Assembly: GCA_041742355.1 (NCBI GenBank)
Contig: JBGSIV010000198.1
Location: forward strand, 1-38,209
Source of the DNA: Candidatus Zixiibacteriota bacterium
Lineage (GTDB): Bacteria; Zixibacteria; MSB-5A5; GN15; FEB-12
Direction of reading: 5' to 3'
DNA length: 38,209 bases
The notes beneath the pieces are model-generated. The model had not been told where the DNA came from and ran no database searches. It saw only the letters and a list, made by a program, of their open reading frames with translations. The position numbers and the translations under genes were made by a program. Below, one piece after another: positions 10,006 through 38,209 of this stretch (within the stretch, counting starts at the first letter, position 1; the number at the start of each line of letters is the position of its first letter).

Positions 10006-12495
10006 TTGCTAAATCGGATCGTGACACGAAGAGCAGGGATTGCTCTTGGCTGCCTTCTGGCAGTACTCCTTCTGGCACAGCTGGGCCAGGCCCAGAACAG
10101 CGACCAGTTCCGGGTCGTCGATGTCCAGGTGGAAGGCAACCGCGTCGCCACCCGGTCGCTGATCCTCGGTGTCGCCGCGATTGAGGTCGGCAGTCCGCTC
10201 ACGCCGACGGCCGTTGCCGAGTCGATCCGGCGCCTCTACGCCCTCGGGATCTTCCGCGACATCTCGATTGATGCCGAGGAGGTCACGGGCGGCATCAAAG
10301 TCACTATCAGTGTCGATGAGCTCCCCAAGCTGTCCGGGCTGGAGTTCAAAGGCAACAGCAAGATCAAAGACGACAAGCTCCGGGAAGAACTCGGGTTGGG
10401 CGTGGGCGGTTACATCTCCCCCTACCTCGTCGAACGGAGCCGGGCCGATATCTACGATTTCTACGCCTCCAAGGGCTACTTCCGCGCGGAAATCCGGCCG
10501 GAGCTGGTGTACGCTGATGACTCGACCAGCGCGGTCCTTGAGTTCAATATCGAGGAACGCGATAAGGTCAAGGTCGAACGGGTCGTTATTGAGGGCAACG
10601 AGCGCGTCGAGGACGGCGACCTCGTCGGCAAGATGCGCAACCGCAAGCGGGGGTGGTTCCGCTCCTCCGATTTTGCCCAGGACGAGTTCGAGAGCGACCT
10701 GACCAAGGTCATCGAGGAGTACCACAAGCGCGGCTTCATCGACGCGTACTTGATCGACGATTCCCTGGCGATCGACACCTCCCGCAACCGCATGACGGTG
10801 CATCTGCAGGTGTACGAGGGGCCGCAGTACTATTTCGGGGCGACATCGTTCGAAGGAAACGAAAAGCTCTCCGATGAGCAGTTGCAGCGGGCGCTCAAAC
10901 ACGAGCCCGGCGCGGTGTTCAACCTCGAGAAGTACGATGAGTCCCTCATGGAGGTCGCCTCGGCCTACTACGAGATCGGCCACCTGCACATCCAGATCGA
11001 CGACCAGCGCGCCACCGAAAGCGACACGCTCATAAACATCACGTACAGCATCACTGAAGGTCTTCCGTCGCACATCAACCTGGTCCGGATCGTCGGCAAC
11101 TACAAGACCAAGGATCAGGTGGTACGCCGCGAGTTGTCGGTCATGCCGGGGCAGGTTTTCAACCGGTCGCTCCTGATCCGGTCGGTCCGCGACGCCATGG
11201 CGCTGAACTTCTTCGAGATCGTCGAGCCCAAGCCGGTCGATCTGCCCAGCGGCGACGTTGACCTGGTGTTTGAGGTCAAAGAGAAGCAGACCGGGCAGAT
11301 CTCCGCCGGCGCCGGCTACAACAGCCAGGACAAACTTGTCGGCACGTTTGGCATGGGGATTCCGAATTTCCGCGGGATGGGGCAGAACCTTTCATTCAAC
11401 GTCAATTTTGGCAGCCGCCGCAATTCGTTCTCAGTGTCGTTCACCGAACCGTGGCTGTTCGGACGCCCGACCCTCCTGGGGCTCAACGCCTTTGCCACCA
11501 ACCGGCGCTGGTACGACGACTACACCGAAGGGCGCACCGGCGGATCGATTCGGCTCGGTCGCCGCTTGCGCTGGCCGGACAACTATTTCCGCGTGTACGG
11601 CTCCTACGCCCTCGAGCGCACCAAGTTTTACGATTTCGACGATACCTACGAGGCCAACAGCTCCTATAAGGCGCGGTACTTCTACAACAATCCGACGACC
11701 GCTACCCGATCCGATTCGCTCCTCTCCAGCCGGACCTACGGCCCCTATCCGGGATCGGTCATCGCTTACGGTGAAGAGCCGCTGACCGCTTCGCGTATCG
11801 CCTTCTCGGTCACCCGGGACTCGCGCAACCTGCCCGAGTTCGCCACCAAAGGCTCCATCCTGTCCTACACGATCGAGAAGACGGGCGGGTTTCTCGGCGG
11901 ATACTGGAACTACACCAAGCACGACCTCGAGGTCGCCCAGTTCATTCCCCTCATGTGGGGCTGGGCGATCGCCGCACGCGCGCAGTACGGCGTGGTGACT
12001 TCCCCCCGGGGGGATGACCGTATCCTCGTGTCGGACCGCTTCACCCCGGGCGGCACCGCGTACGACGGCATCGTGCGAGGCTACGATGATGGCAGCCTGA
12101 CCCCTGATTCGGTCGTGACCCAGTCGGACACGTCGTTCTTCTACACCAACCCCAACGCCGTCATCGGCGTCGATCCGCCCGACGACACCACGTTCTCCAA
12201 TTTTACGACCCGGGTGCGGGGCAAGTACATGTTCGTCACCAATGTCGAGCTGCAGGTACCCATTTCCCGGAACCAGTTCTACGGTCTGCTCTTCTTCGAT
12301 GCCGGCAATTCCTGGCTCCATCGTCCTGACATCAATCTCGTCAGCGAGTTGTATAAGAGTGTAGGGTTCGGCTTCCGGATTGTCGTGCCGGCGATAGGCA
12401 CCATCGGCTTCGACTTCGGGTACCCGCTGGACAAAGTCGAGGGCGAGAAACAGAGCTGGAAACCGCACTTCCAGATTGGAACAACGTTCAGATAA
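10006..12495 (+). CDS. bamA: Outer membrane protein assembly factor BamA
   Basis: Signal peptide, five POTRA-like repeats (GN motifs), VKEKQTG at the barrel start, VRGY motif, C-terminal HFQIGTTFR; followed by skp and lpxD. The TTG start is uncertain. Confidence 0.95.
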   Translation: MLNRIVTRRAGIALGCLLAVLLLAQLGQAQNSDQFRVVDVQVEGNRVATRSLILGVAAIEVGSPLTPTAVAESIRRLYALGIFRDISIDAEEVTGGIKVTISVDELPKLSGLEFKGNSKIKDDKLREELGLGVGGYISPYLVERSRADIYDFYASKGYFRAEIRPELVYADDSTSAVLEFNIEERDKVKVERVVIEGNERVEDGDLVGKMRNRKRGWFRSSDFAQDEFESDLTKVIEEYHKRGFIDAYLIDDSLAIDTSRNRMTVHLQVYEGPQYYFGATSFEGNEKLSDEQLQRALKHEPGAVFNLEKYDESLMEVASAYYEIGHLHIQIDDQRATESDTLINITYSITEGLPSHINLVRIVGNYKTKDQVVRRELSVMPGQVFNRSLLIRSVRDAMALNFFEIVEPKPVDLPSGDVDLVFEVKEKQTGQISAGAGYNSQDKLVGTFGMGIPNFRGMGQNLSFNVNFGSRRNSFSVSFTEPWLFGRPTLLGLNAFATNRRWYDDYTEGRTGGSIRLGRRLRWPDNYFRVYGSYALERTKFYDFDDTYEANSSYKARYFYNNPTTATRSDSLLSSRTYGPYPGSVIAYGEEPLTASRIAFSVTRDSRNLPEFATKGSILSYTIEKTGGFLGGYWNYTKHDLEVAQFIPLMWGWAIAARAQYGVVTSPRGDDRILVSDRFTPGGTAYDGIVRGYDDGSLTPDSVVTQSDTSFFYTNPNAVIGVDPPDDTTFSNFTTRVRGKYMFVTNVELQVPISRNQFYGLLFFDAGNSWLHRPDINLVSELYKSVGFGFRIVVPAIGTIGFDFGYPLDKVEGEKQSWKPHFQIGTTFR

Positions 12496-12524
12496 CGAAT
12501 CATACAGTGAAGAGGTATTCGAAC

Positions 12525-13058
12525 ATGCGAGTAGTCACCGTGGCCATGGCCCTGACTTTCGGAGCCCTGCTGCTGTCCGCGGCGATGCCCGAGCCGGCGG
12601 CCGCCCAGAACCTCAAGATTGGCTTCGTACGCGATGACCGCGTCTATGCCGAGTATACCGAGTGGACCCGCGCCCAGGAGCAGTGGGAGACCGAACGCAA
12701 GGCCTGGGATCAGGAAGCCCAGACCAAGGAGCAGGAACTCAACGAACTTCTTGCCGATTATGACAAGCAGAAGCTGATCCTCTCCGACGAGAAGAAGAAG
12801 GAGCGCGAGGCGATGATCCGGACCAAGAAGGACGCCCTCGACGCCTACACGCGCCAGGTCTTCGGCCCAGGCGGCACGGCCGAACGGAAAGAAGCAGAAC
12901 TCATAGAGCCGCTCCTGACCAAAATTCGCAAAGCGATGGAATTGGTTGCGACGGAGAACAGCTACGACGTGATCTTCACCCTCCAGGGGATCGGTTACAT
13001 CAAAGAGCAGTACGATGTCACCGAGCTCGTGCTGACCAAGCTCAACGAAATCGAGTAG
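12525..13058 (+). CDS. skp: Skp/OmpH periplasmic chaperone
   Basis: Signal peptide, KIGFV, long coiled coil, YDVT..VL..L. GAGGT RBS before the ATG at 12525. Lies between bamA and lpxD. Confidence 0.92.
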   Translation: MRVVTVAMALTFGALLLSAAMPEPAAAQNLKIGFVRDDRVYAEYTEWTRAQEQWETERKAWDQEAQTKEQELNELLADYDKQKLILSDEKKKEREAMIRTKKDALDAYTRQVFGPGGTAERKEAELIEPLLTKIRKAMELVATENSYDVIFTLQGIGYIKEQYDVTELVLTKLNEIE

Positions 13059-13066
13059 CGGTCGCG

Positions 13067-14095
13067 GTGGGGTTCACACTTGCACAACTGGCCGATAAGA
13101 TCGGCGGAACCGTTGATGGCGACGGCGGTGTGGTTATTACCGCCGCCGCGCCCATCGAGTCGGCCGGTCCGGCCGACATCAGTTTCGTCGCCAACGAGCG
13201 CTACGCGAAATATGTGGCCTCGACCTGCGCCGGCGCACTGGTTCTGCACCCCAAAGTTCCCTGCACCCGCGTTCCCGTGATACGTCACGAGAACCCCTAC
13301 CTTGCCTTTGCCTGCATCGTCGACTTTCTCTACCCCGACGAACCCCTTGTTGCGCCCGGCAACGACCCGAGTGCGGTCATCTCGGCCAGCGCCGAGGTAG
13401 ACACCGGCGCCGGCATCGGCCCGCTGTGCCATGTCCGCGATGGCGCCCGTATCGGTAAGGGGACTGAGCTGGTGTCCTCGGTCTTTGTAGGCCGCAACGT
13501 CACGATTGGCGAGGGTTGCCGCATTTATCCCGGCGTCTGCATCATGGACGGCACCACTATCGGCAACCGCGTTATCATTCACTCGTCCACGGTCATCGGT
13601 TCGGACGGTTTCGGGTTTGCAGAGTCGAAAACCGGGCTTAAGAAGATCAAGCAGGTGGGGTGGGTGGAGATCGGCGACGACGTGGAGATCGGCTCCAACT
13701 GCTCGATTGACCGCGGGGCTCTCGGCCCGACCCGGATCGGCAACGGCACGAAGATCGACAACCTCGTGCAGATCGCGCATAATGTAGAGATCGGCCGGCA
13801 CAGCATCATCGTGTCGCAGGTGGGGATCTCCGGATCGACCAAAGTCGGCAACGGGGTGATTCTCGCCGGCCAGGTCGGCGTGATTGGACATCTTGAGATT
13901 GGCGATGGCGTGAGGGTGGCAGCTCAATCGGGCGTGGCCAAAAGCGTCGAGGCGGGGAAAACCGTCTTTGGCTCCCCCGCCCGGGACATCATGGAAACGA
14001 AACGAATCGAGGCCGCCCTCGGACGGCTGCCCGAATTGCTCAAACGGGTCAGGCACCTCGAAAGCAAACTCGCTGGGGACGAGCAGGACGACTAA
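13067..14095 (+). CDS. lpxD: UDP-3-O-acylglucosamine N-acyltransferase
   Basis: Hexapeptide repeats, GSDGFGF, IDRG, KIDNLVQIAHNV. Confidence 0.97.
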   Translation: MGFTLAQLADKIGGTVDGDGGVVITAAAPIESAGPADISFVANERYAKYVASTCAGALVLHPKVPCTRVPVIRHENPYLAFACIVDFLYPDEPLVAPGNDPSAVISASAEVDTGAGIGPLCHVRDGARIGKGTELVSSVFVGRNVTIGEGCRIYPGVCIMDGTTIGNRVIIHSSTVIGSDGFGFAESKTGLKKIKQVGWVEIGDDVEIGSNCSIDRGALGPTRIGNGTKIDNLVQIAHNVEIGRHSIIVSQVGISGSTKVGNGVILAGQVGVIGHLEIGDGVRVAAQSGVAKSVEAGKTVFGSPARDIMETKRIEAALGRLPELLKRVRHLESKLAGDEQDD

Positions 14096-17065: not shown

Positions 17066-17983
17066 GTGGGCGACCGTCGACTTCCGATGTACGTTCATGA
17101 CAAAGCCCTCATGGCCTACGGCCTGATCATGGTTGTGGTCCTGGGAGCGTTCGGTCGCCCCTATCGCGCCTATGTCGACGAGACCATCTTTTACGCCGGT
17201 CTCGCGGTTCTGGCATATGTCGTCGCCCGTTACGTCGATGAAGACCGGAGCGGCTGGCACCGATTTCTGCGGCTTATGTACCCCGCCGTGCTCTTTCCAG
17301 TGCTTTACCGCGAGACCGGCGGAACGATGTTTCTCTTTTTCGATCACTTCTTCGACGCCGAGCTGACGGCATTTGAGTACCGGATACTCGGCGTCAACCC
17401 GACTATATTCATTGACCAACACTTGCTCAACACTTGGACCACCGAAATCCTGTCGCTATGCTACTGGCTATACTACCCTCTCCTGCCCGGATATCTGCTG
17501 CTTGTGTACATCCGGCGAGACTACGATATTGTAAAAAGCTCGATAGCGGCGATGACCATCACGTTCATAGCGGGGTACGTCCTGTTTTTCGTCTACCCAG
17601 TTGAGGGGCCCCGGTGGTTCTTCGCCGATCAGTATCTGAACCCGGTGGAGGGCCCTGTTTTTCGCCCGATGGTGGAGTTCATGATCAGGAATGGCGCGGT
17701 GCGCGGCGGCTGCATGCCGTCGACCCACTACGCCGTCGCCCTCGTGATCACGCTTTTCACGGGCAAGTACTACCCGCGGTGGCTCTGGGTGATGATCCCG
17801 TTGTCCACGGGCTTGGCTCTCGGCACTGTCTGGGGGCGATTTCACTACGTGTCGGACGTCGTGGTCGGCGGCATGATCGCCCTGGCCGTGACTTTCATCG
17901 TCTGGCACACTGCCCCGGATCGCCGGGTGACGAAAACGGCTGCAGCCCCACACAAGGAGGCGTTTCCTTACCATGCATCCTGA
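17066..17983 (+). CDS. PAP2-superfamily membrane protein (Aur1/PAP2_3-like)
   Basis: Multiple TM helices; motifs YPVEGPR, CMPSTH, RFHYVSDV. Confidence 0.85.
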   Translation: MGDRRLPMYVHDKALMAYGLIMVVVLGAFGRPYRAYVDETIFYAGLAVLAYVVARYVDEDRSGWHRFLRLMYPAVLFPVLYRETGGTMFLFFDHFFDAELTAFEYRILGVNPTIFIDQHLLNTWTTEILSLCYWLYYPLLPGYLLLVYIRRDYDIVKSSIAAMTITFIAGYVLFFVYPVEGPRWFFADQYLNPVEGPVFRPMVEFMIRNGAVRGGCMPSTHYAVALVITLFTGKYYPRWLWVMIPLSTGLALGTVWGRFHYVSDVVVGGMIALAVTFIVWHTAPDRRVTKTAAAPHKEAFPYHAS

Positions 17984-18815
17984 ACTAATGCAATTCGGCC
18001 CGATTCATGTCCGCAGCTACGGACTGCTGCTGGCTATTTCGTTCCTGCTGGGCGTCCTGTACATCTGGTGGATCACGAAAAGGCACCGCCGGCCGTTTGA
18101 ACCCTACCTGACGATCGCGTACATCATGACGATCGGCGGGATCGTCGGCGCCCGGCTATTCTATGTTCTCTTCCATCTCGAGGAATTCAAGGGGAACTGG
18201 GGTGCGACTTTCAACCCCTTTGCCTCCAGTGAATTCGGCATTGCCGGGCTGAATCTGTACGGCGGCATTCTCGTGGCCGTGGTCGGGTCGTTCCTTTACG
18301 CGCGCTGGCAGAAACTGCCTGTGCTGGACATTTTTGACTACTTCGCTCCCACCCTCGGCCTCGGGCTTTTCTTCACACGCATCGGCTGTTTTCTGAACGG
18401 CTGCTGCTTCGGGACGCCGACCGACCTCCCCTGGGGAATCAGTTTCCCGGAGGGATCTCTCCCCTACTACGTCTTCGGCAGTACCCACCTGCATCCCTCG
18501 CAGCTCTACAGCTCCCTCTACGGTGCCCTGCTGTTCGTGCTGCTGCACTACATACTCACGCACAGGAAGTTTATCGGGCAGGCAGCGGCGCTGTTCTTCA
18601 TGATCGAAGCGGCCTTCCGCTACGGTATCGAGTACGTGCGTTACTACGAAGAGGAGATGCACTTCACGATCGGTTCGATGCAACCGACCTACAACCAGGT
18701 TATTTCGCTCGGGCTCTTCCTGCTCGGGCTCGGGATCTACCTGTACCAGTCGCGCCGGGCACGCGTGAAGCCGGCTGCTGCGTCTCCGGCGCCTGCCGAA
18801 CGGGCTCGCTCATAG
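17973..18815 (+). CDS. lgt: Prolipoprotein diacylglyceryl transferase
   Basis: RSYG, GARLFYV, RIGCFLNGCCFG, HPSQLY, R...EY.R. Confidence 0.96.
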   Translation: MHPELMQFGPIHVRSYGLLLAISFLLGVLYIWWITKRHRRPFEPYLTIAYIMTIGGIVGARLFYVLFHLEEFKGNWGATFNPFASSEFGIAGLNLYGGILVAVVGSFLYARWQKLPVLDIFDYFAPTLGLGLFFTRIGCFLNGCCFGTPTDLPWGISFPEGSLPYYVFGSTHLHPSQLYSSLYGALLFVLLHYILTHRKFIGQAAALFFMIEAAFRYGIEYVRYYEEEMHFTIGSMQPTYNQVISLGLFLLGLGIYLYQSRRARVKPAAASPAPAERARS

Positions 18816-18879: not shown

Positions 18880-20475
18880 CTACAATCCCCCTCCGGTTGT
18901 ATGGAGGAGTATCCCCTTATCGGCGCAGATCCAACCCTCGTCCTCGTCGATGAAGAACACATCCGACAGATCTTCAGTCACGCCACTGGGCTGTACAGAC
19001 CAGGTTTCACCGTCTTCCGTGTACAGGATCGTGCCACCGGTCCCGACCGCCCAACCTCGGGTAGGGCTAACAAAAGCGGCGGCTGCCAGCCGATGGGTCG
19101 TCGGCGGCGTTTGCGGCAGCCATGATTGCCCGCCGTTGGTCGTGTGGAGGATCGTGCCGGTTTCGCCGAAGATCCAGCCGGTCGTCGCGTTTACGAAAAC
19201 CACACACCACAAGTCGAGTCCGGAGGCCAAGCCGACATCGGCCCATGTCTTGCCGGTATCGGCCGTCAAGAGCACCGCGCCGTTGTTGCCCACCACCCAG
19301 CCGTGCGCGGCATCGAGGAAATACACCCCCTTGAGATCATCGGTGACTCCCGACGTCTGATCGGCCCAGTTCTTGCCACCGTCGTTGGTAGCCAGAATCC
19401 GCCCGGCGTTGCCCACCGCCCAGCCGAAGAGGGAATCGACAAACGAAACGTGGTTCAGCGAAAACGGCCCCGGTGCGGAGATGGCAGTGTTCCAGGTGTC
19501 ACCGCCGTTGACGGTGTATACGATAGTCTGCCCGACCGCCCAGCCGTGGAGTTCATCGGTAAACGTGATATCACCGAGCAACGGGTCAAAAATTACACGC
19601 TCCCCGGAAGGCCACGTAGTTCCTCCGTCCAGCGAACGACTGATTTCACCATCGACTTCGCCCCCCGTGAGCAGGCCGGCCGCGAAACCCGTCTGTGCAT
19701 CGGTGAAGTGCAGCCCGCGAAGGCTGTGCGATGCCGCTGTCCCTTCGTTGCCCGTAATCCACGACCGCACCCAGCTCGCCACCACCAGGCGGCAGGGGAC
19801 GTTTATCGGCGCTTCGGCAAGGGGTGCCGTTATTTTGATCGTATCGTAGTACACTCCCGGCTCAAGCGACTGAATGTCCGCCGACACGATGATCGTATCG
19901 GGTGATGTTCCGGCGGTGGCCGAAAGAGTCATCCAGGAAGCCGTTTTGGCGAGGGTGAAGTCGTACGGGGTGGTGCTGACCCCGGCAATAACCAATTCTT
20001 GCGGTTCCGGATTCGGTTCGCCCGATACCGTGAGGAACAATATGCTGTCGGGTTCCACCGCGACCGCGTTGGTCAACGTAAGCATCACCGGAATGGCGAG
20101 GGGGGAGTTCTCGGCGTAGAGTGCTTCCACCCAGATAGTGTCGTAGTAGACGCCAGCCTGCAGGGAGCCGACACTGATGTTCGCCAGAAAGCTATCGGGC
20201 GCCGGTCCGCTGGTCTGACCAAAGAGGCGCAACCAGTTGCTCCCCCCGGCGATACGGGTTGTGTAGGACAGCTGGCCGCTCCCCTCGGTGGTCACAACCA
20301 CCCACTGCGCCGGGGGATTGATACCGAAGGGAATCTCGCGGATCACCGCGTCGGGCGTGACCCGGAGACGGAGCGGATCGGGCGATACCGATTCGTCCCC
20401 ACACCCACCCCAAATGAGCGCCATCGAGGCCGTGCTCAGTGCCAGCAGAATCGTCGCAGTAAGGCGCTTCACCAT
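18880..20475 (-). CDS. Lipoprotein with two BACON-like Ig domains and a YCF48/BNR-repeat beta-propeller
   Basis: Lipobox-like WGGC. Two repeats of ..W[LM].L...G..PD[ST]...L..GVYYDTI. Repeated F.D...GWAVG..G.IL.T.DGG..W units. GAGGAG RBS. Confidence 0.85.
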   Translation of the reverse strand: MVKRLTATILLALSTASMALIWGGCGDESVSPDPLRLRVTPDAVIREIPFGINPPAQWVVVTTEGSGQLSYTTRIAGGSNWLRLFGQTSGPAPDSFLANISVGSLQAGVYYDTIWVEALYAENSPLAIPVMLTLTNAVAVEPDSILFLTVSGEPNPEPQELVIAGVSTTPYDFTLAKTASWMTLSATAGTSPDTIIVSADIQSLEPGVYYDTIKITAPLAEAPINVPCRLVVASWVRSWITGNEGTAASHSLRGLHFTDAQTGFAAGLLTGGEVDGEISRSLDGGTTWPSGERVIFDPLLGDITFTDELHGWAVGQTIVYTVNGGDTWNTAISAPGPFSLNHVSFVDSLFGWAVGNAGRILATNDGGKNWADQTSGVTDDLKGVYFLDAAHGWVVGNNGAVLLTADTGKTWADVGLASGLDLWCVVFVNATTGWIFGETGTILHTTNGGQSWLPQTPPTTHRLAAAAFVSPTRGWAVGTGGTILYTEDGETWSVQPSGVTEDLSDVFFIDEDEGWICADKGILLHTTGGGL

Positions 20476-20674: not shown

Positions 20675-20703
20675 TTGACAGGAAGTGGCGTTTCCGCTAT
20701 ATT
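20675..20703 (+). promoter_or_regulatory. Sigma70 promoter of the Omp85-kinase-PAP2 operon
   Basis: TTGACA-N17-TATATT, near consensus. Confidence 0.7.
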
Positions 20704-20734: not shown

Positions 20735-22060
20735 ATGAAGCCCAGACGTCGATTACCGTCCCGCTCGCACTTCTCCGCCCGACTGCACCTGCCGCTTTTT
20801 CTCGCTCTGCTTCTGGCAGCGTCAGTCACGTGGGCGCAGGAGCCAGTCGATTCCGCAATGGTTCGGACTCCCGAACCGCCGCGCAAATCGGTGGGAGATC
20901 GTCTGCTCGACATTCCCGAAGAGCTTCTTCGCCTGCCGATTCGTGCAGTCAAAGGGGTGGTCTACGGGGGCATCGAGGCCGCGAACTCCAGCGCCACGGT
21001 CGCTCGATTGGTCGAAAATGCCTTCTCCCCCGCGCCGATCACCGGCCTTTATCCGGTCGCATCGTATGGCTCCAACTCCGGCCTGGTTGGCGGCCTCGGG
21101 TACCGGAATTTCGACTTGCTGCGAGACGGTGACCGCTTCGATCTTCGGGGATCTTACTCTACCCATCAGTACCAGCGATTCCGCATTCGTTACGAGTCCG
21201 CCCTCCCGCCGAACGATCACCCAGCCTATATCATTACTCTGCAATACCGCAAGCGACCGTGGGAGCATTTTTACGGCCTGGGCAATGATTCCCGGCCGGA
21301 AGATCGAGTCGCCTACACCCTCGAACAGACCGGTCTGGATGCATCGGTCAGGCTCCCGCTCGGAAGCGGGGTGGCCGCGCGGGCGCGTGGCGCCATTACC
21401 GCCGACAACATCTTCGACGGCCAGGCCGACCACCTCGTGACCAACCTCGACATCATCCGCGAGTCCCTGGACCTTGACCGCGATGCCACGCGGAGCACGC
21501 GCTATGTCTCGATAGGCGCCGGCCTCGAACACGATTGGCGAGACACGCTCGGCCGGCCCACGCACGGCGGGATAGAGCGGATTGGCGTGACCTACAATCG
21601 CGGGGTCGGCCGATCTGACGACCTCGAGTTCTTCATCACGGAAGTTGAGATTCAGCATTTTCTGAATGTCTTCAGGAAGCGCACTATTGCCGCCCGACTG
21701 CTGATTCGCGAGGTTGATCGACCCGACCAGGCCCCATCGCTCCCCTTCTACTTGAGGAGCGGTCTCGGCGGCGAGGACGACCTGCGCGGCTTCAGCCGTT
21801 CGCGCTTTGTCGACAACGACCTCGCTCTCCTGACCGTGGAATGGCGGTACCCGGTCTGGCGGGTAGTTGACGGATTCATCTTCGTCGATGAAGCCCGCGT
21901 GTTTTCGTCCTTGCGGGATGATTTCTCCTTCCGCGGTTGGCACTCCTCCGCCGGTATCGGCCTGCGCGTCTGGTCGGAGCGGGCGCTCCATGCCAAGGCG
22001 ATGCTCGCCTTCGGCGAGGAGGAACCACGCCTCTACCTTGACTTAGGAGCGGAGTTCTGA
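20735..22060 (+). CDS. Omp85 (BamA/TamA-family) outer membrane beta-barrel, apparently lacking POTRA domains
   Basis: Signal peptide ending VTWA-Q, amphipathic strands, HDWRD, LRGF motif (DLRGFSRSRFVDN), terminal Phe. Only a short N-terminal region precedes the barrel. Confidence 0.85.
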   Translation: MKPRRRLPSRSHFSARLHLPLFLALLLAASVTWAQEPVDSAMVRTPEPPRKSVGDRLLDIPEELLRLPIRAVKGVVYGGIEAANSSATVARLVENAFSPAPITGLYPVASYGSNSGLVGGLGYRNFDLLRDGDRFDLRGSYSTHQYQRFRIRYESALPPNDHPAYIITLQYRKRPWEHFYGLGNDSRPEDRVAYTLEQTGLDASVRLPLGSGVAARARGAITADNIFDGQADHLVTNLDIIRESLDLDRDATRSTRYVSIGAGLEHDWRDTLGRPTHGGIERIGVTYNRGVGRSDDLEFFITEVEIQHFLNVFRKRTIAARLLIREVDRPDQAPSLPFYLRSGLGGEDDLRGFSRSRFVDNDLALLTVEWRYPVWRVVDGFIFVDEARVFSSLRDDFSFRGWHSSAGIGLRVWSERALHAKAMLAFGEEEPRLYLDLGAEF

Positions 22061-23796
22061 TGCGGCGGCGGCATCTCCCATTCTTACTCGGCACTATTGC
22101 CGCCTTGAGCCTCATGGCGCTGGCGGCAGGCTGCGGCGCCCCGCGACCGCAGCTACGACCGGAGGGCCCGTACTGGATCGACGCCGACACGCGCGATATC
22201 CCCGAGCCAGCAGGTGCTGACCCGCGGCTGGCGTGGCAGACGATCGACCGGACCGTTTTCAATCAGCTCGAGCAGTACGCCGATATCGAACGGGACGTTC
22301 GCATTATCCTCGGCGACCGCGAGGAGGCCTGGAACATCAATGCGGTGGACGAGGTGCCGGATTGCTCCTGGTTCACCAACCGCCATGGCTTGCATCGGAT
22401 GAGTCCCGACGAGATCCGACGGGGCGTCAGCCTGACCGGCGGCCCGGACACTACCGGCCCCTGGACGCTGTTCCGCCCGAAAGTCGGCGGCAAGACTCCC
22501 GGCTTCCGGGTCGAGGATCCTCGGGGCAAGCAGTATATCATCAAATTCGACCCGGTGGACAACCCCGAGCTGGCTACCGCCGCCGGGGCGATGGGGGCAC
22601 GATACTTCCACGCCGCCGGCTACAATGTCCCGGAGGAGACGATTGTCTTCTGGCGGCCGGAACAACTGCGCATCCGCGATGGCCTCGCATTCACCGACCG
22701 AAGCGGTATTCGGCGTCCGTTCACTTCCCAGGATTTGCAGGACATCCTGAAGCGGGTCCGCCGCGAACCCGACGGTCGCATCCGCTCCCTTGCGTCGCTG
22801 GCATTGCCCAATGTCAAGGGCCCGTTCAGCTATACCGGCACGCGTGCCGACGACCCCAACGACTGGTGCCGCCACGAGCACCGCCGCGAACTGCGCGGGC
22901 TCTATGTCATTGCTTCGCTCATCAACCACTACGATCTGAAGGACCAGAACTCGTTGGATTGTTATGTCGAGGAGGATGGCCGGTGCTTCCTCAGGCATTA
23001 CCTGATCGATTTCGGCTCGACTTTCGGCTCCAACGGGGATCGACCCAAGGAACCGCTCGTCGGTTATGCCAACGGATTCGATCTGCGCGATGCGATCGTA
23101 TCGATGGTTACGCTCGGCCTGTGGACCTGGCCTTGGGAGAAGGCGCGACCGTACGAGTACCCATCAATCGGCTACTTCGAGTCGCAGATTTTCCGGCCGC
23201 ACAAATTCGACGCCGTCGTTCCGAACCCGGCGCTCGAGAATATGACGAGCCGCGATGCTTACTGGGGAGCCAAAATCGTCATGGCCTTCCGCGACGACGA
23301 CATCAGGGCTATCGTCGACGCCGGGCAGTACTCCGATGCGGCCGCCGCCGACTATCTGCTGCGGACCCTGATCGAGCGGCGAGACAAGATCGGCCGCCAC
23401 TGGTTCGCCAAAGTGAATCCGCTCGACAACTTCATGGTTACCGATGGTTCACAAGGACTGCTGATCGCGTTCGACGACCTTGCGGTGAAATATGACCTTG
23501 AGTCAAGCCATGGCACCCGGTACCGTCATTTCCTGTATCATAACGGCAAACGTCTCGCCCAACCAACTCCGGGAACCGAACGCGTGATCCGGGTGCCTGA
23601 CTCACTGCTGCAGGTGATCTCCAGTCGAGTTGGTGCCGCCGAAGAACCGGAGTCCGGGAATCATCTCGTCCGCATCGATATCCAATCAAAACGCGGGGAT
23701 CAGGGCTGGAGCAAACCGGTTCGCCTGTGGTTATGGCATCAACCCGAGGCATCCGATGCAAGGTTGCGACTGGTCGGAGTGGAGCACATCGATTGA
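22060..23796 (+). CDS. Lipoprotein with predicted atypical (HipA/PI3K/CotH-like) kinase fold
   Basis: Lipobox LAAGC. Motifs GGKTPG, YIIKFD, PELAT, NHYDLKDQN, LIDFG appear in kinase order. TGATG overlap with the upstream gene. Confidence 0.75.
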   Translation: MRRRHLPFLLGTIAALSLMALAAGCGAPRPQLRPEGPYWIDADTRDIPEPAGADPRLAWQTIDRTVFNQLEQYADIERDVRIILGDREEAWNINAVDEVPDCSWFTNRHGLHRMSPDEIRRGVSLTGGPDTTGPWTLFRPKVGGKTPGFRVEDPRGKQYIIKFDPVDNPELATAAGAMGARYFHAAGYNVPEETIVFWRPEQLRIRDGLAFTDRSGIRRPFTSQDLQDILKRVRREPDGRIRSLASLALPNVKGPFSYTGTRADDPNDWCRHEHRRELRGLYVIASLINHYDLKDQNSLDCYVEEDGRCFLRHYLIDFGSTFGSNGDRPKEPLVGYANGFDLRDAIVSMVTLGLWTWPWEKARPYEYPSIGYFESQIFRPHKFDAVVPNPALENMTSRDAYWGAKIVMAFRDDDIRAIVDAGQYSDAAAADYLLRTLIERRDKIGRHWFAKVNPLDNFMVTDGSQGLLIAFDDLAVKYDLESSHGTRYRHFLYHNGKRLAQPTPGTERVIRVPDSLLQVISSRVGAAEEPESGNHLVRIDIQSKRGDQGWSKPVRLWLWHQPEASDARLRLVGVEHID

Positions 23797-24641
23797 TGCG
23801 GATTCGCTCCATAGTCATTTCGCTGCTGGTCATCGCGACAGTCTGCTCGACCGCGGCTGCCCAGAATGACCCGGATTACCTCGAATTCGAGGAACTGGCC
23901 GCCATTGGCGCCGGATCATTCGCTTTGTTCGGAGCGGGGAAATTGCTGAACCAATGGGATTCGACCTACCCCTCCCGCTGGACCGGTCCGCTTCCGGGTG
24001 AGCCGGCGATTCAGCGCTGGCTTGGGGGATCGTACTATCCCGGTAAGAGCAACTTCCTCGATGGCGACTTCGGGTCGGCTCTCACGCCAATTATCGGCGG
24101 ACTCATTATCGGTGCAGCCGACCTCAAATGGCCCGCCTCCAAGCGAGGCAAGGACTTCGGACAGGATCTCTATGTTTACGGCTGCGGGCTCCTGGCCACC
24201 AAGGGGCTTACCGCAATCGCCAAAGGGTTCATCGCCCGTCCCCGCCCGCTTCTGGTTCTCCACCCGGATCTGGCGGCGACACGCACCGACCGCGATGATC
24301 GTTACGATCGCCAGGCGTTCTTCTCCGGCCATGCCTCCAGCGCGTTCTTCTCGATGACCTACGCCAACAAGCGGGTGCGCGGCACGATGCGACGGGTAAT
24401 GACCGCCGACTCCTACCGCGACTGGCGCTGGCTGCCGCCGATCCTGTCGTACGGCTGGGCGACCTTTGTGGGCTGGTCCCGGATCCACGCCTACAAGCAC
24501 TTTATAAGCGATGTCGCGGTCGGAGCGCTTGCGGGGTGGGTTATGGCCGAGCTGTTTTACTACTTCGGTGACCGCAGCTATGACGACTCTGTAAACGACT
24601 CTCGGGCCCCGGCCATGTTCACGTTGACTATTCCGTTCTGA
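23796..24641 (+). CDS. Exported PAP2-family phosphatase
   Basis: Signal peptide ending AAA-Q. PAP2 motifs KGFIARPRP, FSGH, SRIHAYKHFISD. TGATG overlap. Confidence 0.88.
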   Translation: MRIRSIVISLLVIATVCSTAAAQNDPDYLEFEELAAIGAGSFALFGAGKLLNQWDSTYPSRWTGPLPGEPAIQRWLGGSYYPGKSNFLDGDFGSALTPIIGGLIIGAADLKWPASKRGKDFGQDLYVYGCGLLATKGLTAIAKGFIARPRPLLVLHPDLAATRTDRDDRYDRQAFFSGHASSAFFSMTYANKRVRGTMRRVMTADSYRDWRWLPPILSYGWATFVGWSRIHAYKHFISDVAVGALAGWVMAELFYYFGDRSYDDSVNDSRAPAMFTLTIPF

Positions 24642-24787: not shown

Positions 24788-25606
24788 ATGGATCTGGGCA
24801 ACTGGTTTACCGATCTCTCGCCGATCATTCAGGCTCTATTGGCCACGCTGTTCACCTGGGGAGTCACCGCCCTCGGGGCGGCCGCCGTGTTCACCACCCG
24901 AAACCCGAACCGCAAGGTGCTCGACGGCATGCTGGGATTTGCTGCCGGCGTCATGATTGCCGCAAGCTACTGGTCGCTCCTCGCCCCGGCGATCGCCATG
25001 TCGGAGGGGGGCAGCATGCCATCGTGGTTCCCAGCGCTGGTCGGTTTTCTCATGGGCGCCGTTTTTCTGCGCGGGCTCGACATGACCCTCCCCCACCTCC
25101 ACCTGTTCGAAGAGGTTGGGCACGCCGAGGGGATTAAGACCCGCTGGCACAAGACGACGCTCCTGGTGCTGGCGATCACGCTCCACAACATACCTGAGGG
25201 CCTCGCGGTCGGCATTGCTTTCGGTGCGGTTGCGGTCGGCATGGATTCAGCCACGCTGGGCGGGGCGATCGCGCTGGCGATCGGCATCGGCCTGCAGAAT
25301 TTCCCGGAGGGCGCGGCAGTCTCGATGCCGCTGCGGCGCGAAGGGCTCTCTCGCGGGAAGGCCTTCTGGTACGGTCAGATTTCCGGAATGGTCGAACCTT
25401 TGGCCGGCATGGCCGGCGCCGCCCTCGTGCTTATCGCCCAGCCGATTCTTCCCTATGCTCTCGCCTTTGCGGCCGGCGCCATGATCTTCGTTGTCGTGGA
25501 AGAAGTCATTCCTGAATCCCAGTCCGGCGGCCATCCGCACGCCGCCACCCTCGGCGCCATGCTCGGTTTCGCGGTCATGATGACCCTTGATGTCGCCCTC
25601 GGTTAG
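24788..25606 (+). CDS. ZIP family metal transporter (GufA/ZupT-like)
   Basis: [47 protein letters not shown]. Confidence 0.95.
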
Positions 25607-35606: not shown

Positions 35607-36770
35607 TTAGTACCGAAATATTGCCGCGACATCTCGACCGCCGGGCATCGCAACGGGGTTCACCGCAAACACTGTCCCCGAATTGACCAGCGTGTGAACT
35701 GCGGCCAGATCGTACAGATCCTCGTTCCCTTTGGCGTTCTGATCGTGTGTCTGTACCTCTGCATTGCCGGGACGGTACGTGCCGTACTGCTGAGACTGCT
35801 CCGGCACGAAGAGCGTGTCTATCCGGCCGGCATGCGCCGCCGGCACGATCTCGGCCAGAACATCGGATGCATGGCCGCTCCCAGTTCCCTTCAGATTCTC
35901 GAATTTCTGCTTTGCGAACATCTGCGCCGATTCAAACCGCGGCCGCACGAGCTCCCACGCCTTGCGGTGCAACTCGGCCGGCTGGTCGTTGTCGGGATTG
36001 CCCGGGATCCCTTCGACTATGTTCGGGTATCGGCTCGCCTCCCGGAACAGCGGGAAAATGTACTCCACCCCGGCCAGCACCAGCGGCGCCCGTTCCTCAT
36101 GCAGGACGCTCCACAACCCCCGGTCCACCTTCTGGAAATACCGCAGCAACGCGTTCTTGTGGTCCAGTTCATTGGAGCCGGCCGAGAAGAACGCCACGTC
36201 GCTACTGGCCCCCGGGCCCCGTTGCGGCGACCCCGTGTAGAACTTCTTCTCCGCCTCGATATCCTCGAACTTCAGCGCATCTCCCATTCCCGACGGCACC
36301 GAATCCAGTCTGATTTCAGACACCGAATCACGCGTCCCCTGGAGCAGCCGCACCCGCTCCTTGCTCAGGGCGAGGACGTAGAATTTCCCGTCGTTGGTCA
36401 GGAGCGGCACGAGCGGTTTGATGTAGAACCGGTCGCCCACCATCGTCATCTCGCTGAACTGTGCGGGGAGACGGTAGTGGCGGACACTCTCCTTCGAGAG
36501 AAACAGGGCCAGGCCATCACTCTGGTGGCTCCAGAAGTTCCAGTCCTCCAGGAGCGGCTGCACCCGACCGATCAATTCCCGGGCCAAGGTTGTGCGCACG
36601 CCCTGCGCCGCCAGCGCTTTCTCCGCCTTGTGGACCTGATTTCTGAACCGGATCGGATCCTGCTCGACTTTCTTCCGTCCGCCGCGATGCGTCGGCATGT
36701 AGATCGACACGCACGGCCCCTGGTGTGCCGCTATCAGCCCCCGGATATCATCCATGCGGATCATGTCCAT
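35607..36770 (-). CDS. baeRF-family (bacterial aeRF1-like) protein
   Basis: CVSIYMPT, DPIRFRN, FW......LALF, FYIKPL, FYVLALS, PLVLAG, GRIDTLF, AAIFRY. No GGQ motif. Confidence 0.8.
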   Translation of the reverse strand: MDMIRMDDIRGLIAAHQGPCVSIYMPTHRGGRKKVEQDPIRFRNQVHKAEKALAAQGVRTTLARELIGRVQPLLEDWNFWSHQSDGLALFLSKESVRHYRLPAQFSEMTMVGDRFYIKPLVPLLTNDGKFYVLALSKERVRLLQGTRDSVSEIRLDSVPSGMGDALKFEDIEAEKKFYTGSPQRGPGASSDVAFFSAGSNELDHKNALLRYFQKVDRGLWSVLHEERAPLVLAGVEYIFPLFREASRYPNIVEGIPGNPDNDQPAELHRKAWELVRPRFESAQMFAKQKFENLKGTGSGHASDVLAEIVPAAHAGRIDTLFVPEQSQQYGTYRPGNAEVQTHDQNAKGNEDLYDLAAVHTLVNSGTVFAVNPVAMPGGRDVAAIFRY

Positions 36771-36785
36771 GTATGAAACCTCCCG

Positions 36786-38081
36786 TTACGTTGCCTGCCC
36801 CGATGGCCACTCTGCACCGGTGCCTCGAAGCGTGAATTTCGTTTCGAACGAGTCGAACAGGTCGAGCCAATTGCCCATCAGGCGGGTCAGGAGAAACTTC
36901 TGGCGCACCGTTTCCCGGGCGTTGCGTCCGATGCGCCGACGCAGATCCTCATTTCGCAGCAGTTGCACCGCTCGGGCGGCCATCTCCTTTCCCGAATTCA
37001 CCAGAAAACCGTTCTCTCCGTCGACAATCTGATGGCGGATTCCGCCAACTCTGGTGCCGATAACCGCCGCCTCCTTCCACATCGCCTCGGCGACCGTCAG
37101 CCCGAAGCCCTCCCGGATCGAATTCTGCACCACTACCGCTGCCTTCCGCTGCAGCGCGTTGACCAAAGCCGTGTCCTGCTCGCTCATGATGATTATGCGC
37201 TCTTCCCGTTCTTTCAGCAGCGACTCGTATACTTCCGCCCCCTCCGGGTCGTCGGTAGCCGCATTGCCCAGCAACACCAGCGTCGCGTCGACCTCCTGCC
37301 GCACAAGCTTGAACATCTCGATCACTCCGGCCGGATCCTTCCATCGGTCGAATCGCGACACCTGCACGATGATCGGGCGGTCATCAGGGATGCCGTAGTG
37401 CGACAGGCGCTCCATACACTCGGCGTCGCTCAGGTCCCGGTTGGCGATACTGAACGGGTCGATCGCCGGCATGAAGAACATCTGCGGCGTCTGCAGTTCC
37501 CGCCGGTACTCCGGCAGCGACATCACTACCGCGTCGTAGCACTCCACGAAGCCCTTGAGGTACTTCCAGAGTTCGCGGTCCGGTGCGGTGAGATCAATGT
37601 GGCAGCGCCAGATCCAAGGGCTGTTCCGGCGGTAGTGCTTGATCAGCGGCAGTGGCTGGGGGTCGTGAATAATCACCATGTCATGGTCGAGGTGGTTGCG
37701 AACCGCGTTCTCGTAGATGACTTCCTCGTAGATCTCCTTCTTGCGGTCGGTCAGGTTGATTTCGTCCCCCTGCAGGGCATTGTGCATTTTCTTTGTGATG
37801 TTGAAGAAGTCAGGCGACCCTTGAATCACCCGCCAGCCGGTCTTCAGACCGGCCCCGTTCATCAGGAGGATGATGCTCGACAGCAGGGTCGCCACGCCGC
37901 CGCCGTAGTAGGTGGAACTGACATTCACAATGTGCATGTCCTCCAGCCGTTCCGCAGCGCGAAGCAGCCGGTCCACCTCCTCGGCGCCGATCAGATCCTC
38001 GTAGTCCTCAACCCGGGGAAAGCGGAGCCGTCCTTTCGTCGTAGCCCGTTTGCTGTCGATCATCGTCGCGCTATCAGGCAT
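36786..38081 (-). CDS. treT: TreT-like trehalose synthase (GT4 glycosyltransferase)
   Basis: ST..GGGVA, HNALQG, HDPQP, WRCHID, QVSRFD.WKDP, EGFGLTV.EAMWK. AGGAG RBS 9 nt before the ATG at 38081; alternative starts at 38111 and 38117. Confidence 0.85.
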   Translation of the reverse strand: MPDSATMIDSKRATTKGRLRFPRVEDYEDLIGAEEVDRLLRAAERLEDMHIVNVSSTYYGGGVATLLSSIILLMNGAGLKTGWRVIQGSPDFFNITKKMHNALQGDEINLTDRKKEIYEEVIYENAVRNHLDHDMVIIHDPQPLPLIKHYRRNSPWIWRCHIDLTAPDRELWKYLKGFVECYDAVVMSLPEYRRELQTPQMFFMPAIDPFSIANRDLSDAECMERLSHYGIPDDRPIIVQVSRFDRWKDPAGVIEMFKLVRQEVDATLVLLGNAATDDPEGAEVYESLLKEREERIIIMSEQDTALVNALQRKAAVVVQNSIREGFGLTVAEAMWKEAAVIGTRVGGIRHQIVDGENGFLVNSGKEMAARAVQLLRNEDLRRRIGRNARETVRQKFLLTRLMGNWLDLFDSFETKFTLRGTGAEWPSGQAT

Positions 38082-38209
38082 CTTGAAACTCTCCTGTAAT
38101 CGGTGAGTCATTTCCACTGTTCTTCCAACGTGCGGCCGATGTCCGGAGCGTTCGGCCCCGAGCTACCCGGCCGGAACCGACGGGTCGGTCGGATCGTCAG
38201 GCGGTGGCG

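Follow-up and report, generated by a model that had tools for sequence, protein, structure and literature searches.

An exported lipoprotein with a predicted atypical kinase fold, paired with an Omp85-type barrel and associated with ATP/ADP-carrier-type genes in Zixibacteria and other bacterial phyla

Atypical kinases have been described in several settings that bear on the protein reported here. CtkA (JHP0940) of Helicobacter pylori (PDB 3AKJ/3AKK) is HipA-like and is itself a secreted bacterial kinase. The Fam20 proteins (the Golgi casein kinase Fam20C, and Fam20A/B) are kinases that work outside the cytosol, and Fam20C depends on adenosine triphosphate (ATP) carried into the lumen of the endoplasmic reticulum (ER) and Golgi. 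The CotH spore-coat kinases (PDB 5JDA) work inside the mother cell, whose cytoplasm provides ATP, and the lipid kinases PI4KII-alpha and MavQ function in the cytosol, as enzymes of eukaryotic cells or as effectors. The periplasm, in turn, is taught as an ATP-free compartment, and we know of no ATP-dependent periplasmic kinase established in bacteria. Here, we describe a gene for an exported lipoprotein with a predicted atypical kinase fold in a stretch of 38,209 nucleotides from a Candidatus Zixiibacteriota bacterium (assembly GCA_041742355.1, contig JBGSIV010000198.1, positions 1-38,209, forward strand; hereafter the window). The gene lies directly behind a gene for an Omp85-type outer-membrane barrel, and its presence across genomes tracks that of genes of the TLC family, to which ATP/ADP (adenosine diphosphate) transporters belong.

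The features of the kinase-fold gene in the window are as follows:

22060..23796, + strand: kinase-fold lipoprotein gene, an open reading frame (ORF) of 578 amino acids
22060..22134, + strand: signal peptide and lipobox LAAGC, with the codon of Cys25 at 22132-22134 (from sequence and conservation)
22135..22434, + strand: conserved N-terminal segment, residues 26-125 (N92, N94, D97, E98, P100, W104, N107, R108), confidently placed in the model
22438..23415, + strand: predicted atypical protein-kinase-like core, residues ~127-452, from the ranges of the structural alignments
22480..22503, + strand: Gly-rich loop KVGGKTPG, K141-G148, between N-lobe strands 1 and 2 (135-141 and 148-152)
22543..22545, + strand: K162 in IIKFD, the predicted ATP-binding lysine
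22849..22896, + strand: family-specific motif D264-R279 (DDPNDWCRHEHRRELR), preceding the catalytic loop
22924..22950, + strand: catalytic loop NHYDLKDQN (D292, K294, N297), conserved among relatives
23008..23016, + strand: DFG, D317-G319, with D317 as the predicted metal-binding aspartate, conserved among relatives
23416..23793, + strand: C-terminal beta-sandwich resembling fibronectin type III (FN3) domains, residues 453-578

A first-pass annotation of the window had described this protein as an exported lipoprotein with a full set of kinase catalytic motifs. The N-terminus of the protein, MRRRHLPFLLGTIAALSLMALAAGC, has a positive start (MRRRH) and a hydrophobic stretch, and ends in what we take to be a lipobox, with Cys25 as its last residue. 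This cysteine is invariant in all 28 close relatives. At the level of sequence, the signal peptide, the lipobox, and the invariant cysteine thus bear out the proposed export. More distant relatives have lipobox-like starts or, in part, plain signal peptides. Among 149 relatives with a lipobox-like match, none had Asp at position +2; the Asp +2 retention rule was established in E. coli, and Zixibacteria may not follow it. As for the catalytic motifs, the Gly loop, the lysine, the glutamate (E170 in PELAT, the proposed helix-C Glu), the D-x4-N loop, and the DFG were each recovered where the annotation had put them.

Conservation was evaluated in two alignments, one of 28 close relatives (49-64% identity) and one of 60 relatives, reaching down to 31% identity. 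All 28 close relatives have every one of the catalytic residues K162, D292, N297, and D317. In the wider set, K162 was kept in 57 of 60 sequences, D292 in 58, N297 in 55, and D317 in 57, followed by F318 (54/60) and G319 (46/60), while position 294 was Lys or Arg in 52. The Gly loop was similarly retained (K141 in 51/60, G144 in 56/60, G148 in 50/60). The set of Lys, Glu, Asp, Asn, and Asp assembled in the annotation was therefore conserved in four of its members (55-58/60) and more weakly in the Glu (47/60). Twelve further residues were present in all 60 sequences (R108, D153, D265, D268, H272, R276, R279, H313, G323, D399, W402, R440), and several of these belong to DDPND..H.HRR..R, a family-specific motif just 5' of the catalytic loop. 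Each of the kinase motifs is short and could occur by chance; we judge them to be real because their conservation, their placement in the structural model, and the fold searches agree.

The structure of the protein was modeled with AlphaFold2 from the 60-sequence alignment, with a predicted local distance difference test score (pLDDT) of 93.9 and a predicted template modeling score (pTM) of 0.92. In the model, K162 lies on strand 158-163, the catalytic loop follows helix 281-287, and the DFG follows a hairpin formed by residues 298-315. Foldseek placed Fam20C (E 1.5e-5) and CtkA (E 7.2e-5) at the top of its ranks, and SidJ was also among its matches (E 1.4e-3). Re-scoring of the Foldseek matches gave the following values, where rmsd is the root mean square deviation:

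CtkA: Z 14.1, rmsd 4.6 Å, 235 residues aligned
Hydra Fam20: Z 13.2, rmsd 3.8 Å, 247 residues aligned
PI4KII-alpha: Z 12.8
Legionella HipT: Z 11.4
MavQ: Z 9.8
HipA: Z 9.1

A second fold search, independent of Foldseek, covered 48,161 PDB representatives. Its 14 best rows were all atypical kinases (Z 9.4-13.4), and only 20 chains reached a Z of 8. CtkA was again first (Z 13.4, rmsd 4.1, 220 residues aligned), followed by Fam20 (13.2), PI4KII-alpha (12.6), Fam20C (12.5), CotH (11.5, 228 residues aligned), actin-fragmin kinase (10.7), HipA (10.7), HipT (10.5), and MavQ (9.9). The ranges of the model that were aligned were 127-459 with CtkA, 102-452 with Fam20, 121-451 with PI4KII-alpha, and 130-452 with CotH; alignments with Fam20 reach into the N-terminal segment, starting at residue 37. 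Residues 453-578 matched cytokine-receptor and fibronectin type III domains with Z 8.0-8.5, which may reflect only a common arrangement. A two-lobed atypical kinase fold, carrying the Lys, the Asp and Asn of the catalytic loop, and the DFG Asp, is thus confidently predicted. The suggestion in the first-pass annotation of a HipA/PI3K/CotH-like atypical kinase finds support in the fold, with CtkA, PI4KII-alpha, CotH, and HipA among the best matches, and none in family profiles.

Indeed, scans of the window protein with Pfam and NCBIfam profiles gave 0 matches at E<=1, and this includes the profiles HipA_C (PF07804), HipA_2 (PF20613), Fam20C (PF06702), CotH, and PI3_PI4_kinase. PDB searches with the single sequence and with a 60-sequence profile found no kinase match; the best profile match was an unrelated chain of 126 amino acids on the C-terminal domain (E 0.026). 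Weak matches appeared among the 60 relatives, six of which matched HipA_2 (best E 7.9e-4) and three HipA_C (best E 0.017). In a protein atlas, the nearest clusters were unnamed, and the nearest ones bearing Pfam domains were Fam20C (11% of members, score 0.79) and HipA_2 (0.78), which we treat as leads only. On its predicted fold, we place the protein among the atypical kinases, as a new family that by profile lies outside all those named.

The family is large. In a collection clustered at 90% identity, 2,785 relatives were found at E<=0.001 among 7,998 candidates scored; among the 120 relatives listed, all named ones were hypothetical proteins, and most carried Zixibacteria labels. Representatives at 50% identity gave 2,963 relatives, 773 of them at E<=1e-30. 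Some relatives are degenerate, and 2-5 of the 60 aligned sequences miss one or another catalytic residue. A search among proteins of 1,013-2,890 amino acids recovered six paralogues of ~1,160 amino acids (P0270-P0275, from Acidobacteriota and metagenomes), in which the kinase-like part is N-terminal; four of them were scanned with Pfam, and their 600-residue C-terminal part gave no match. The one that was aligned, P0271, has Ile in place of K162, Asn in place of D292, and DFS in place of DFG, and the six are probably pseudokinase relatives. Fused forms of barrel and kinase, which would fix the topology, numbered 0 in the same size range, a negative that is weak evidence. Within one Zixibacteria kinase-fold gene (G084:C129:32289-33986), we observed an in-frame TAG.

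How does the protein differ from the systems that it resembles in fold? CtkA, which gave the top structural score (Z 13.4-14.1 over 220-235 aligned residues), likewise has a catalytic loop and DFG in an atypical kinase core, but identity to CtkA, HipA, and HipT is only 11-12%. Beyond the core that it has in common with CtkA and HipA, the window protein carries a lipobox, a conserved N-terminal segment of 100 residues, the DDPND...H.HRR..R motif, and the FN3-like tail. Unlike HipA, it carries a signal peptide and has an Omp85-type barrel and phosphatases as gene neighbors, with no neighbor of the antitoxin type (HipB/HipS). Fam20 (Z 11.8-13.2) is alike in acting outside the cytosol, as proposed for the window protein. 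Identity to Fam20 is 9-12%, and the window protein is bacterial, predicted to be lipid-anchored, and barrel-paired, with carriers of the TLC/NTT family in place of a eukaryotic ER/Golgi carrier. Nevertheless, Fam20C with its lumenal ATP supply would be the closest analogy to a carrier-fed periplasmic kinase. CotH (Z 11.5) has an atypical kinase fold and no barrel or carrier partners. PI4KII-alpha (Z 12.6-12.8) and MavQ (Z 9.8-9.9) demonstrate that membrane lipids can be substrates for this branch of the fold, and such an activity would fit an enzyme tethered to a membrane and encoded beside a PAP2 protein of the lipid-phosphate-phosphatase type.

The gene directly upstream encodes the barrel, and its stop overlaps the start of the kinase-fold gene as TGATG. 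Its features are:

20735..22060, + strand: Omp85-type outer-membrane barrel gene, 441 amino acids from the ATG at 20735 (Pfam Omp85, PF01103, E 6.5e-15)
21785..21793, + strand: R351-G352-F353 of the barrel (LRGF), with G352 invariant and R351 kept in at least 90% of 36 sequences

We take LRGF to correspond to the RGF/Y motif that Omp85 proteins carry in loop 6. The barrel model (pLDDT 85.4) comprises a signal peptide, a low-confidence helix at residues 53-96 (pLDDT ~60), and a 16-strand barrel at residues 104-437, which matched Fusobacterium nucleatum BamA with Z 27.4 and TamA with Z 25.6. POTRA domains before the barrel were found neither by profile scan nor in the model, where only helix 53-96 precedes it. 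The protein thus shares with BamA and TamA the PF01103 domain, the 16 strands (Z 25-27), and the conserved RGF, but it is predicted to have an N-terminal helix instead of POTRA domains and is only 441 amino acids long. That it might be the cell's own BamA was rejected because a separate BamA with five POTRA domains is encoded at 10006-12495. This BamA is the first gene of an envelope cluster, followed by Skp/OmpH (12507-13058) and LpxD (13067-14095), and the cluster indicates a diderm organism with lipopolysaccharide (LPS) and a complete BamA of its own.

A complex of the barrel and the kinase-fold protein was predicted with a score of 0.44 (runs 0.44, 0.49, and 0.26), where the best of three controls scored 0.00. 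The runs share at least 82% of their contacts, and the pLDDT of the partner is at least 84. Of 157 solved complexes, 116 reached the pass mark, as did 2 of 215 mismatched pairs; passes at or below 0.60 comprise 18 of the 157 complexes and both mismatches. The prediction thus lends weak support to docking of the lipoprotein on the barrel. In a separate observation, one Omp85-type partner gene, from a Rhodothermales metagenome-assembled genome (L070:2472-3848), has an in-frame stop; this stop and the TAG noted above may be sequencing errors, broken copies, or recoding.

To describe the surroundings of the kinase-fold gene in relatives, we sampled 80 loci from public genomes and clustered their 503 neighboring ORFs. 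In 70 of the 80 loci, the gene immediately upstream, in the same orientation, is of the Omp85 type. For five of the remaining ten, the upstream flank is shorter than 1 kb; in two others a barrel gene occurs elsewhere in the locus, and in three there is none. The 80 loci span Zixibacteria, Acidobacteriota, Gemmatimonadota, Nitrospirota, Latescibacterota, Eisenbacteria, Calditrichota, KSB1, Myxococcota, and others. A gene of the TLC family (PF03219, the ATP/ADP transporter family) was present within 4 kb in 25 of the 80 loci; all nine tested members of this neighbor cluster match PF03219, and one of them is fused to HEAT repeats. Five annotated Zixibacteria loci (L083-L086 and L088) show variants of one gene order: a PAS/GAF sensor kinase, the barrel, the kinase-fold protein, a Metallophos lipoprotein, a short TLC protein, a TLC-HEAT protein, a cyclic nucleoside monophosphate (cNMP)-binding protein, and a receiver. 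In five Gemmatimonadota loci (L024, L032, L037, L044, and L056), a DegP-like protease gene lies upstream, and genes for an NhaA antiporter and a Hanks-type Ser/Thr kinase lie downstream, as assigned by a Pfam check of one member per blastp cluster.

In the genome from which the window comes, the only TLC gene encodes a TLC-HEAT fusion of at least 947 amino acids (L082; G000:C307:488-4486), located directly after a gene for a PAS histidine kinase. The protein matches PF03219 with 65.3 bits (cut-off 21), and none of 14 control genomes had a PF03219 match. ADP/ATP carriers of known structure (9j3j and 9j3n), from plastids and bacteria, were matched by the short TLC protein with E values of 1.9e-13 and 3.7e-9. 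By sequence, the TLC proteins are distant members of the TLC/NTT transporters. Major, Embley and Williams (2017) reported NTT-HEAT and NTT-HEAT-cNBD fusions in free-living bacteria, with a cNMP-binding gene after NTT-HEAT, and called them uncharacterized (PMC5381601). The carriers linked to the kinase-fold gene, TLC and HEAT proteins followed by a cNMP-binding gene, have the arrangement reported there. A term search of the main text of that paper gave no occurrence of "kinase" or "periplasm", and neither an exported kinase nor an Omp85-type barrel nor phosphatases are mentioned there.

Next, the presence of the kinase-fold gene and of TLC genes was compared across genomes in three phyla:

Zixibacteria, 121 genomes, all at least 90% complete: both genes in 34, kinase-fold gene only in 1 (G035), TLC only in 0, neither in 86
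Acidobacteriota, 151 genomes: both in 21, kinase-fold gene only in 8, TLC only in 19, neither in 103
Gemmatimonadota, 101 genomes: both in 5, kinase-fold gene only in 4, TLC only in 7, neither in 85

In Zixibacteria, 34 of 35 genomes with the kinase-fold gene carry a TLC gene, compared to 0 of 86 genomes without it. The corresponding fractions are 21/29 versus 19/122 in Acidobacteriota and 5/9 versus 7/92 in Gemmatimonadota, where four of the nine kinase-positive genomes have no TLC gene. The link is therefore strong in Zixibacteria, and clear although not strict in the other two phyla. In each of the 35 positive Zixibacteria genomes, the kinase-fold gene is a single match, and most genomes that also carry TLC have the two on the same contig, no more than ~10 kb apart. 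Neither of the two other genomes from the window's genus yielded the kinase-fold gene.

Immediately downstream of the kinase-fold gene lies a third gene, whose start overlaps the kinase-fold stop, again as TGATG:

23796..24641, + strand: integral-membrane PAP2 phosphatase gene, 281 amino acids from the ATG at 23796 (Pfam PAP2, PF01569, E 3.2e-19)

With TGATG overlaps on both sides, the kinase-fold gene is coupled in translation to the barrel gene and to the PAP2 gene. The PAP2 catalytic motifs, which we take to be KX6RP, SGH, and SRX5HX3D, are all present, and in ten sequences R150, P151, S177, G178, H179, R229, H235, and D239 are invariant and K143 is kept in at least 90%. A PAP2 homologue occurs in the flank of the kinase-fold gene in 8 of the 80 loci, all of them close relatives. 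A Metallophos family adjoins the module in 11 of the 80 loci; its proteins carry lipoboxes or signal peptides and weakly resemble a cyclic-nucleotide phosphodiesterase model (E 1.2e-5 and 2.1e-4), falling far short of its cut-off.

Taken together, these observations lead us to favor, tentatively, the reading that the protein is a periplasmic kinase tethered to the outer membrane, with an Omp85-type barrel of its own, that uses ATP exported by TLC/NTT carriers on an envelope substrate. The lipoprotein would be anchored on the periplasmic side of the outer membrane and would dock on the barrel encoded upstream. The TLC/NTT carriers would export ATP from the cytoplasm in exchange for ADP. With this ATP as donor, the kinase would phosphorylate an envelope component, for which a protein, a lipid or LPS group, and a glycan are candidates. 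The PAP2 protein, presumably encoded on the same transcript, may then reverse or process the product, as exported Metallophos lipoproteins may do in other lineages. The first-pass annotation had asked which phosphodonor could serve a kinase outside the cytoplasm, and this question now has a lead, because TLC/NTT genes are linked to the kinase-fold gene by gene order and by presence and absence. Since the presence of the kinase tracks genes of the ATP/ADP-carrier type, ATP is likely supplied outside the cytoplasm.

Several points weigh against this reading. In the window genome, the TLC gene is on another contig and not adjacent to the kinase and barrel pair, such that the module is split, at least as assembled. 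Across the three phyla, 13 of 73 kinase-positive genomes (1 + 8 + 4) have no detectable TLC gene, where completeness is stated for Zixibacteria only. Conversely, 26 kinase-negative genomes do carry a TLC gene, and hence the carriers are not exclusive to the module. The counts also overstate the link because related genomes are not independent. Within the kinase motifs, E170 is conserved less well than the other residues (24/28 close relatives, 47/60 in the wider set), and in the model its position is the start of helix 171-186. The score of the barrel-kinase complex falls in a band that is more often wrong than right unless a pairing is likely beforehand. ATP in the periplasm could leak out through porins. 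The TLC proteins reach 44-68 bits, compared to a cut-off of 387 for the model of nucleoside tri- and diphosphate (NTP/NDP) exchangers, TIGR00769; because these scores are far below the cut-off, we can only infer the substrate of the carriers. Lastly, the NTT carriers that are characterized are described as nucleotide importers (PMC5381601).

The conserved pairing of the barrel and kinase genes in 70 of 80 loci could also be explained if the barrel were a dedicated exporter. The kinase would then be moved to the surface or released, in a manner resembling two-partner secretion, and would act on extracellular, prey, or host targets with external ATP. The Omp85 superfamily includes protein translocators, and the two best structural matches of the kinase, CtkA and Fam20, are secreted kinases. 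However, TpsB transporters have two POTRA domains, through which they recognize their cargo, and the cargo has an N-terminal TPS domain. The barrel described here is predicted to be without POTRA domains and to be preceded only by a low-confidence helix, and the lipoprotein has no TPS-domain profile match (0 Pfam matches) and no Pfam domain of any kind. The locus does not, therefore, correspond to a TpsB/TpsA pair. In addition, the N-terminal 100 residues of the lipoprotein are modeled confidently with the kinase core and not as a free secretion domain, and nucleotide carriers of the inner membrane and exported phosphatase lipoproteins fit a periplasmic site better. We consider export by the barrel unlikely.

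The link to TLC genes in samples from three phyla would also fit a module for nucleotide scavenging, in which the barrel is an entry channel of the outer membrane, phosphoesterases trim extracellular nucleotides or nucleic acids, the TLC carriers import nucleotides, and the kinase-fold protein binds or processes nucleotides in the periplasm. This explanation agrees with the import function described for characterized NTT carriers (PMC5381601). It also agrees with the export signals of the linked Metallophos proteins and with their weak resemblance to the cyclic-nucleotide phosphodiesterase model. Yet it gives no role to the conserved catalytic Asp, Asn, and Asp, which indicate phosphotransfer, and a periplasmic kinase would still need a phosphodonor. 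Moreover, barrels of the BamA/TamA type, the closest matches of the upstream protein, are not known as solute channels. Scavenging is likewise an improbable account of the module.

The kinase fold might also serve other chemistry, such as AMPylation or another nucleotide-dependent transfer, as in SelO and SidJ, or might form a nucleotide-sensing scaffold for the barrel. Precedents for non-kinase chemistry on a kinase fold exist, SidJ was itself among the Foldseek matches, and the degenerate relatives (including the 1,160-residue form with Ile for K162 and Asn for D292, and the 2-5 of 60 sequences that miss a residue) show departures from the canonical set. In contrast, the window protein and 55-58 of 60 relatives keep the canonical phosphotransfer residues, with Lys or Arg at position 294 in 52, which makes a different chemistry quite unlikely. 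Finally, it is highly improbable that the donor is not a nucleotide and that the kinase-fold protein or PAP2 uses undecaprenyl pyrophosphate or polyphosphate in the manner of LpxT. The window does have a PAP2 gene in translational coupling with the kinase gene, but this linkage is confined to 8 of the 80 loci, every one of them from a close relative. The kinase-fold protein has a Gly-rich loop, Lys, and DFG, features that typically go with nucleotide binding, and the association with TLC genes likewise suggests nucleotides. For LpxT itself, the donor is undecaprenyl pyrophosphate, and there is no kinase fold. Its phosphorylation of lipid A on the periplasmic side is the one established example of such a reaction that the literature search returned, and like the downstream gene product LpxT belongs to the PAP2 family (PMC2229476). 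The core of the module described here, unlike LpxT, is a protein of predicted kinase fold with nucleotide-binding motifs.

If the favored reading of a carrier-fed, barrel-held kinase is extended beyond this locus, many diderm phyla of free-living bacteria would run an ATP-fueled phosphorylation of the envelope, in which carriers export ATP, a barrel-held kinase uses it, phosphatases reverse the reaction, and cyclic-nucleotide and two-component systems exert control. This extension is possible and somewhat doubtful. If true, it would constitute a bacterial counterpart of the kinases of the eukaryotic secretory pathway, provide a first function for the uncharacterized NTT-HEAT transporters, and overturn the textbook view of a periplasm without ATP-dependent chemistry. 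The family itself (~2,960 clusters at 50% identity) is exported, has an intact kinase active site, and is unmatched by Pfam and NCBIfam, and its pairing with the barrel and its links to carriers and phosphatases make a vague question accessible to experiment. A role is also suggested for the NTT-HEAT transporters of free-living bacteria, described as uncharacterized (PMC5381601). A literature search, with subscription journals and supplements outside its coverage, found no description of the kinase family or of an exported kinase with an Omp85-type barrel or NTT carriers.

The remaining features of the window concern the start and the flanks of the three-gene cluster. A promoter-like sequence precedes the barrel gene:

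20675..20703, + strand: sigma-70-like promoter match TTGACA-17 nt-TATATT, 11 of 12 positions, ~30 nucleotides before the ATG of the barrel gene (a consensus match only)

Two such matches were found in the region, compared to 1.7 expected in shuffled sequences. Divergent from the barrel gene, on the - strand at 18880-20475, lies a gene for a protein of 531 amino acids with BNR/Ycf48-like repeats and a lipobox-like N-terminus (…LIWGGC); a Sortilin/BNR protein adjoins the module at another locus as well (L035:68-2428), and its blastp cluster is present in 4 of the 80 loci. G+C content is even over the window, at 0.59-0.62; composition thus offers no hint that an island was acquired recently.

A few kb upstream of the operon, a second gene of the PAP2 superfamily (PAP2_3, 17066-17983) overlaps the start of lgt, the gene for prolipoprotein diacylglyceryl transferase (17973-18815). 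On the downstream side, a gene for a ZIP-family metal transporter (24788-25606) follows PAP2 on the same strand after 146 nucleotides; terminator-like hairpins appear only after the ZIP gene, which may share the operon transcript. Toward the end of the window, on the - strand at 35610-38117, a bacterial aeRF1-like protein (baeRF family) is encoded beside a glycosyltransferase of the trehalose-synthase type.

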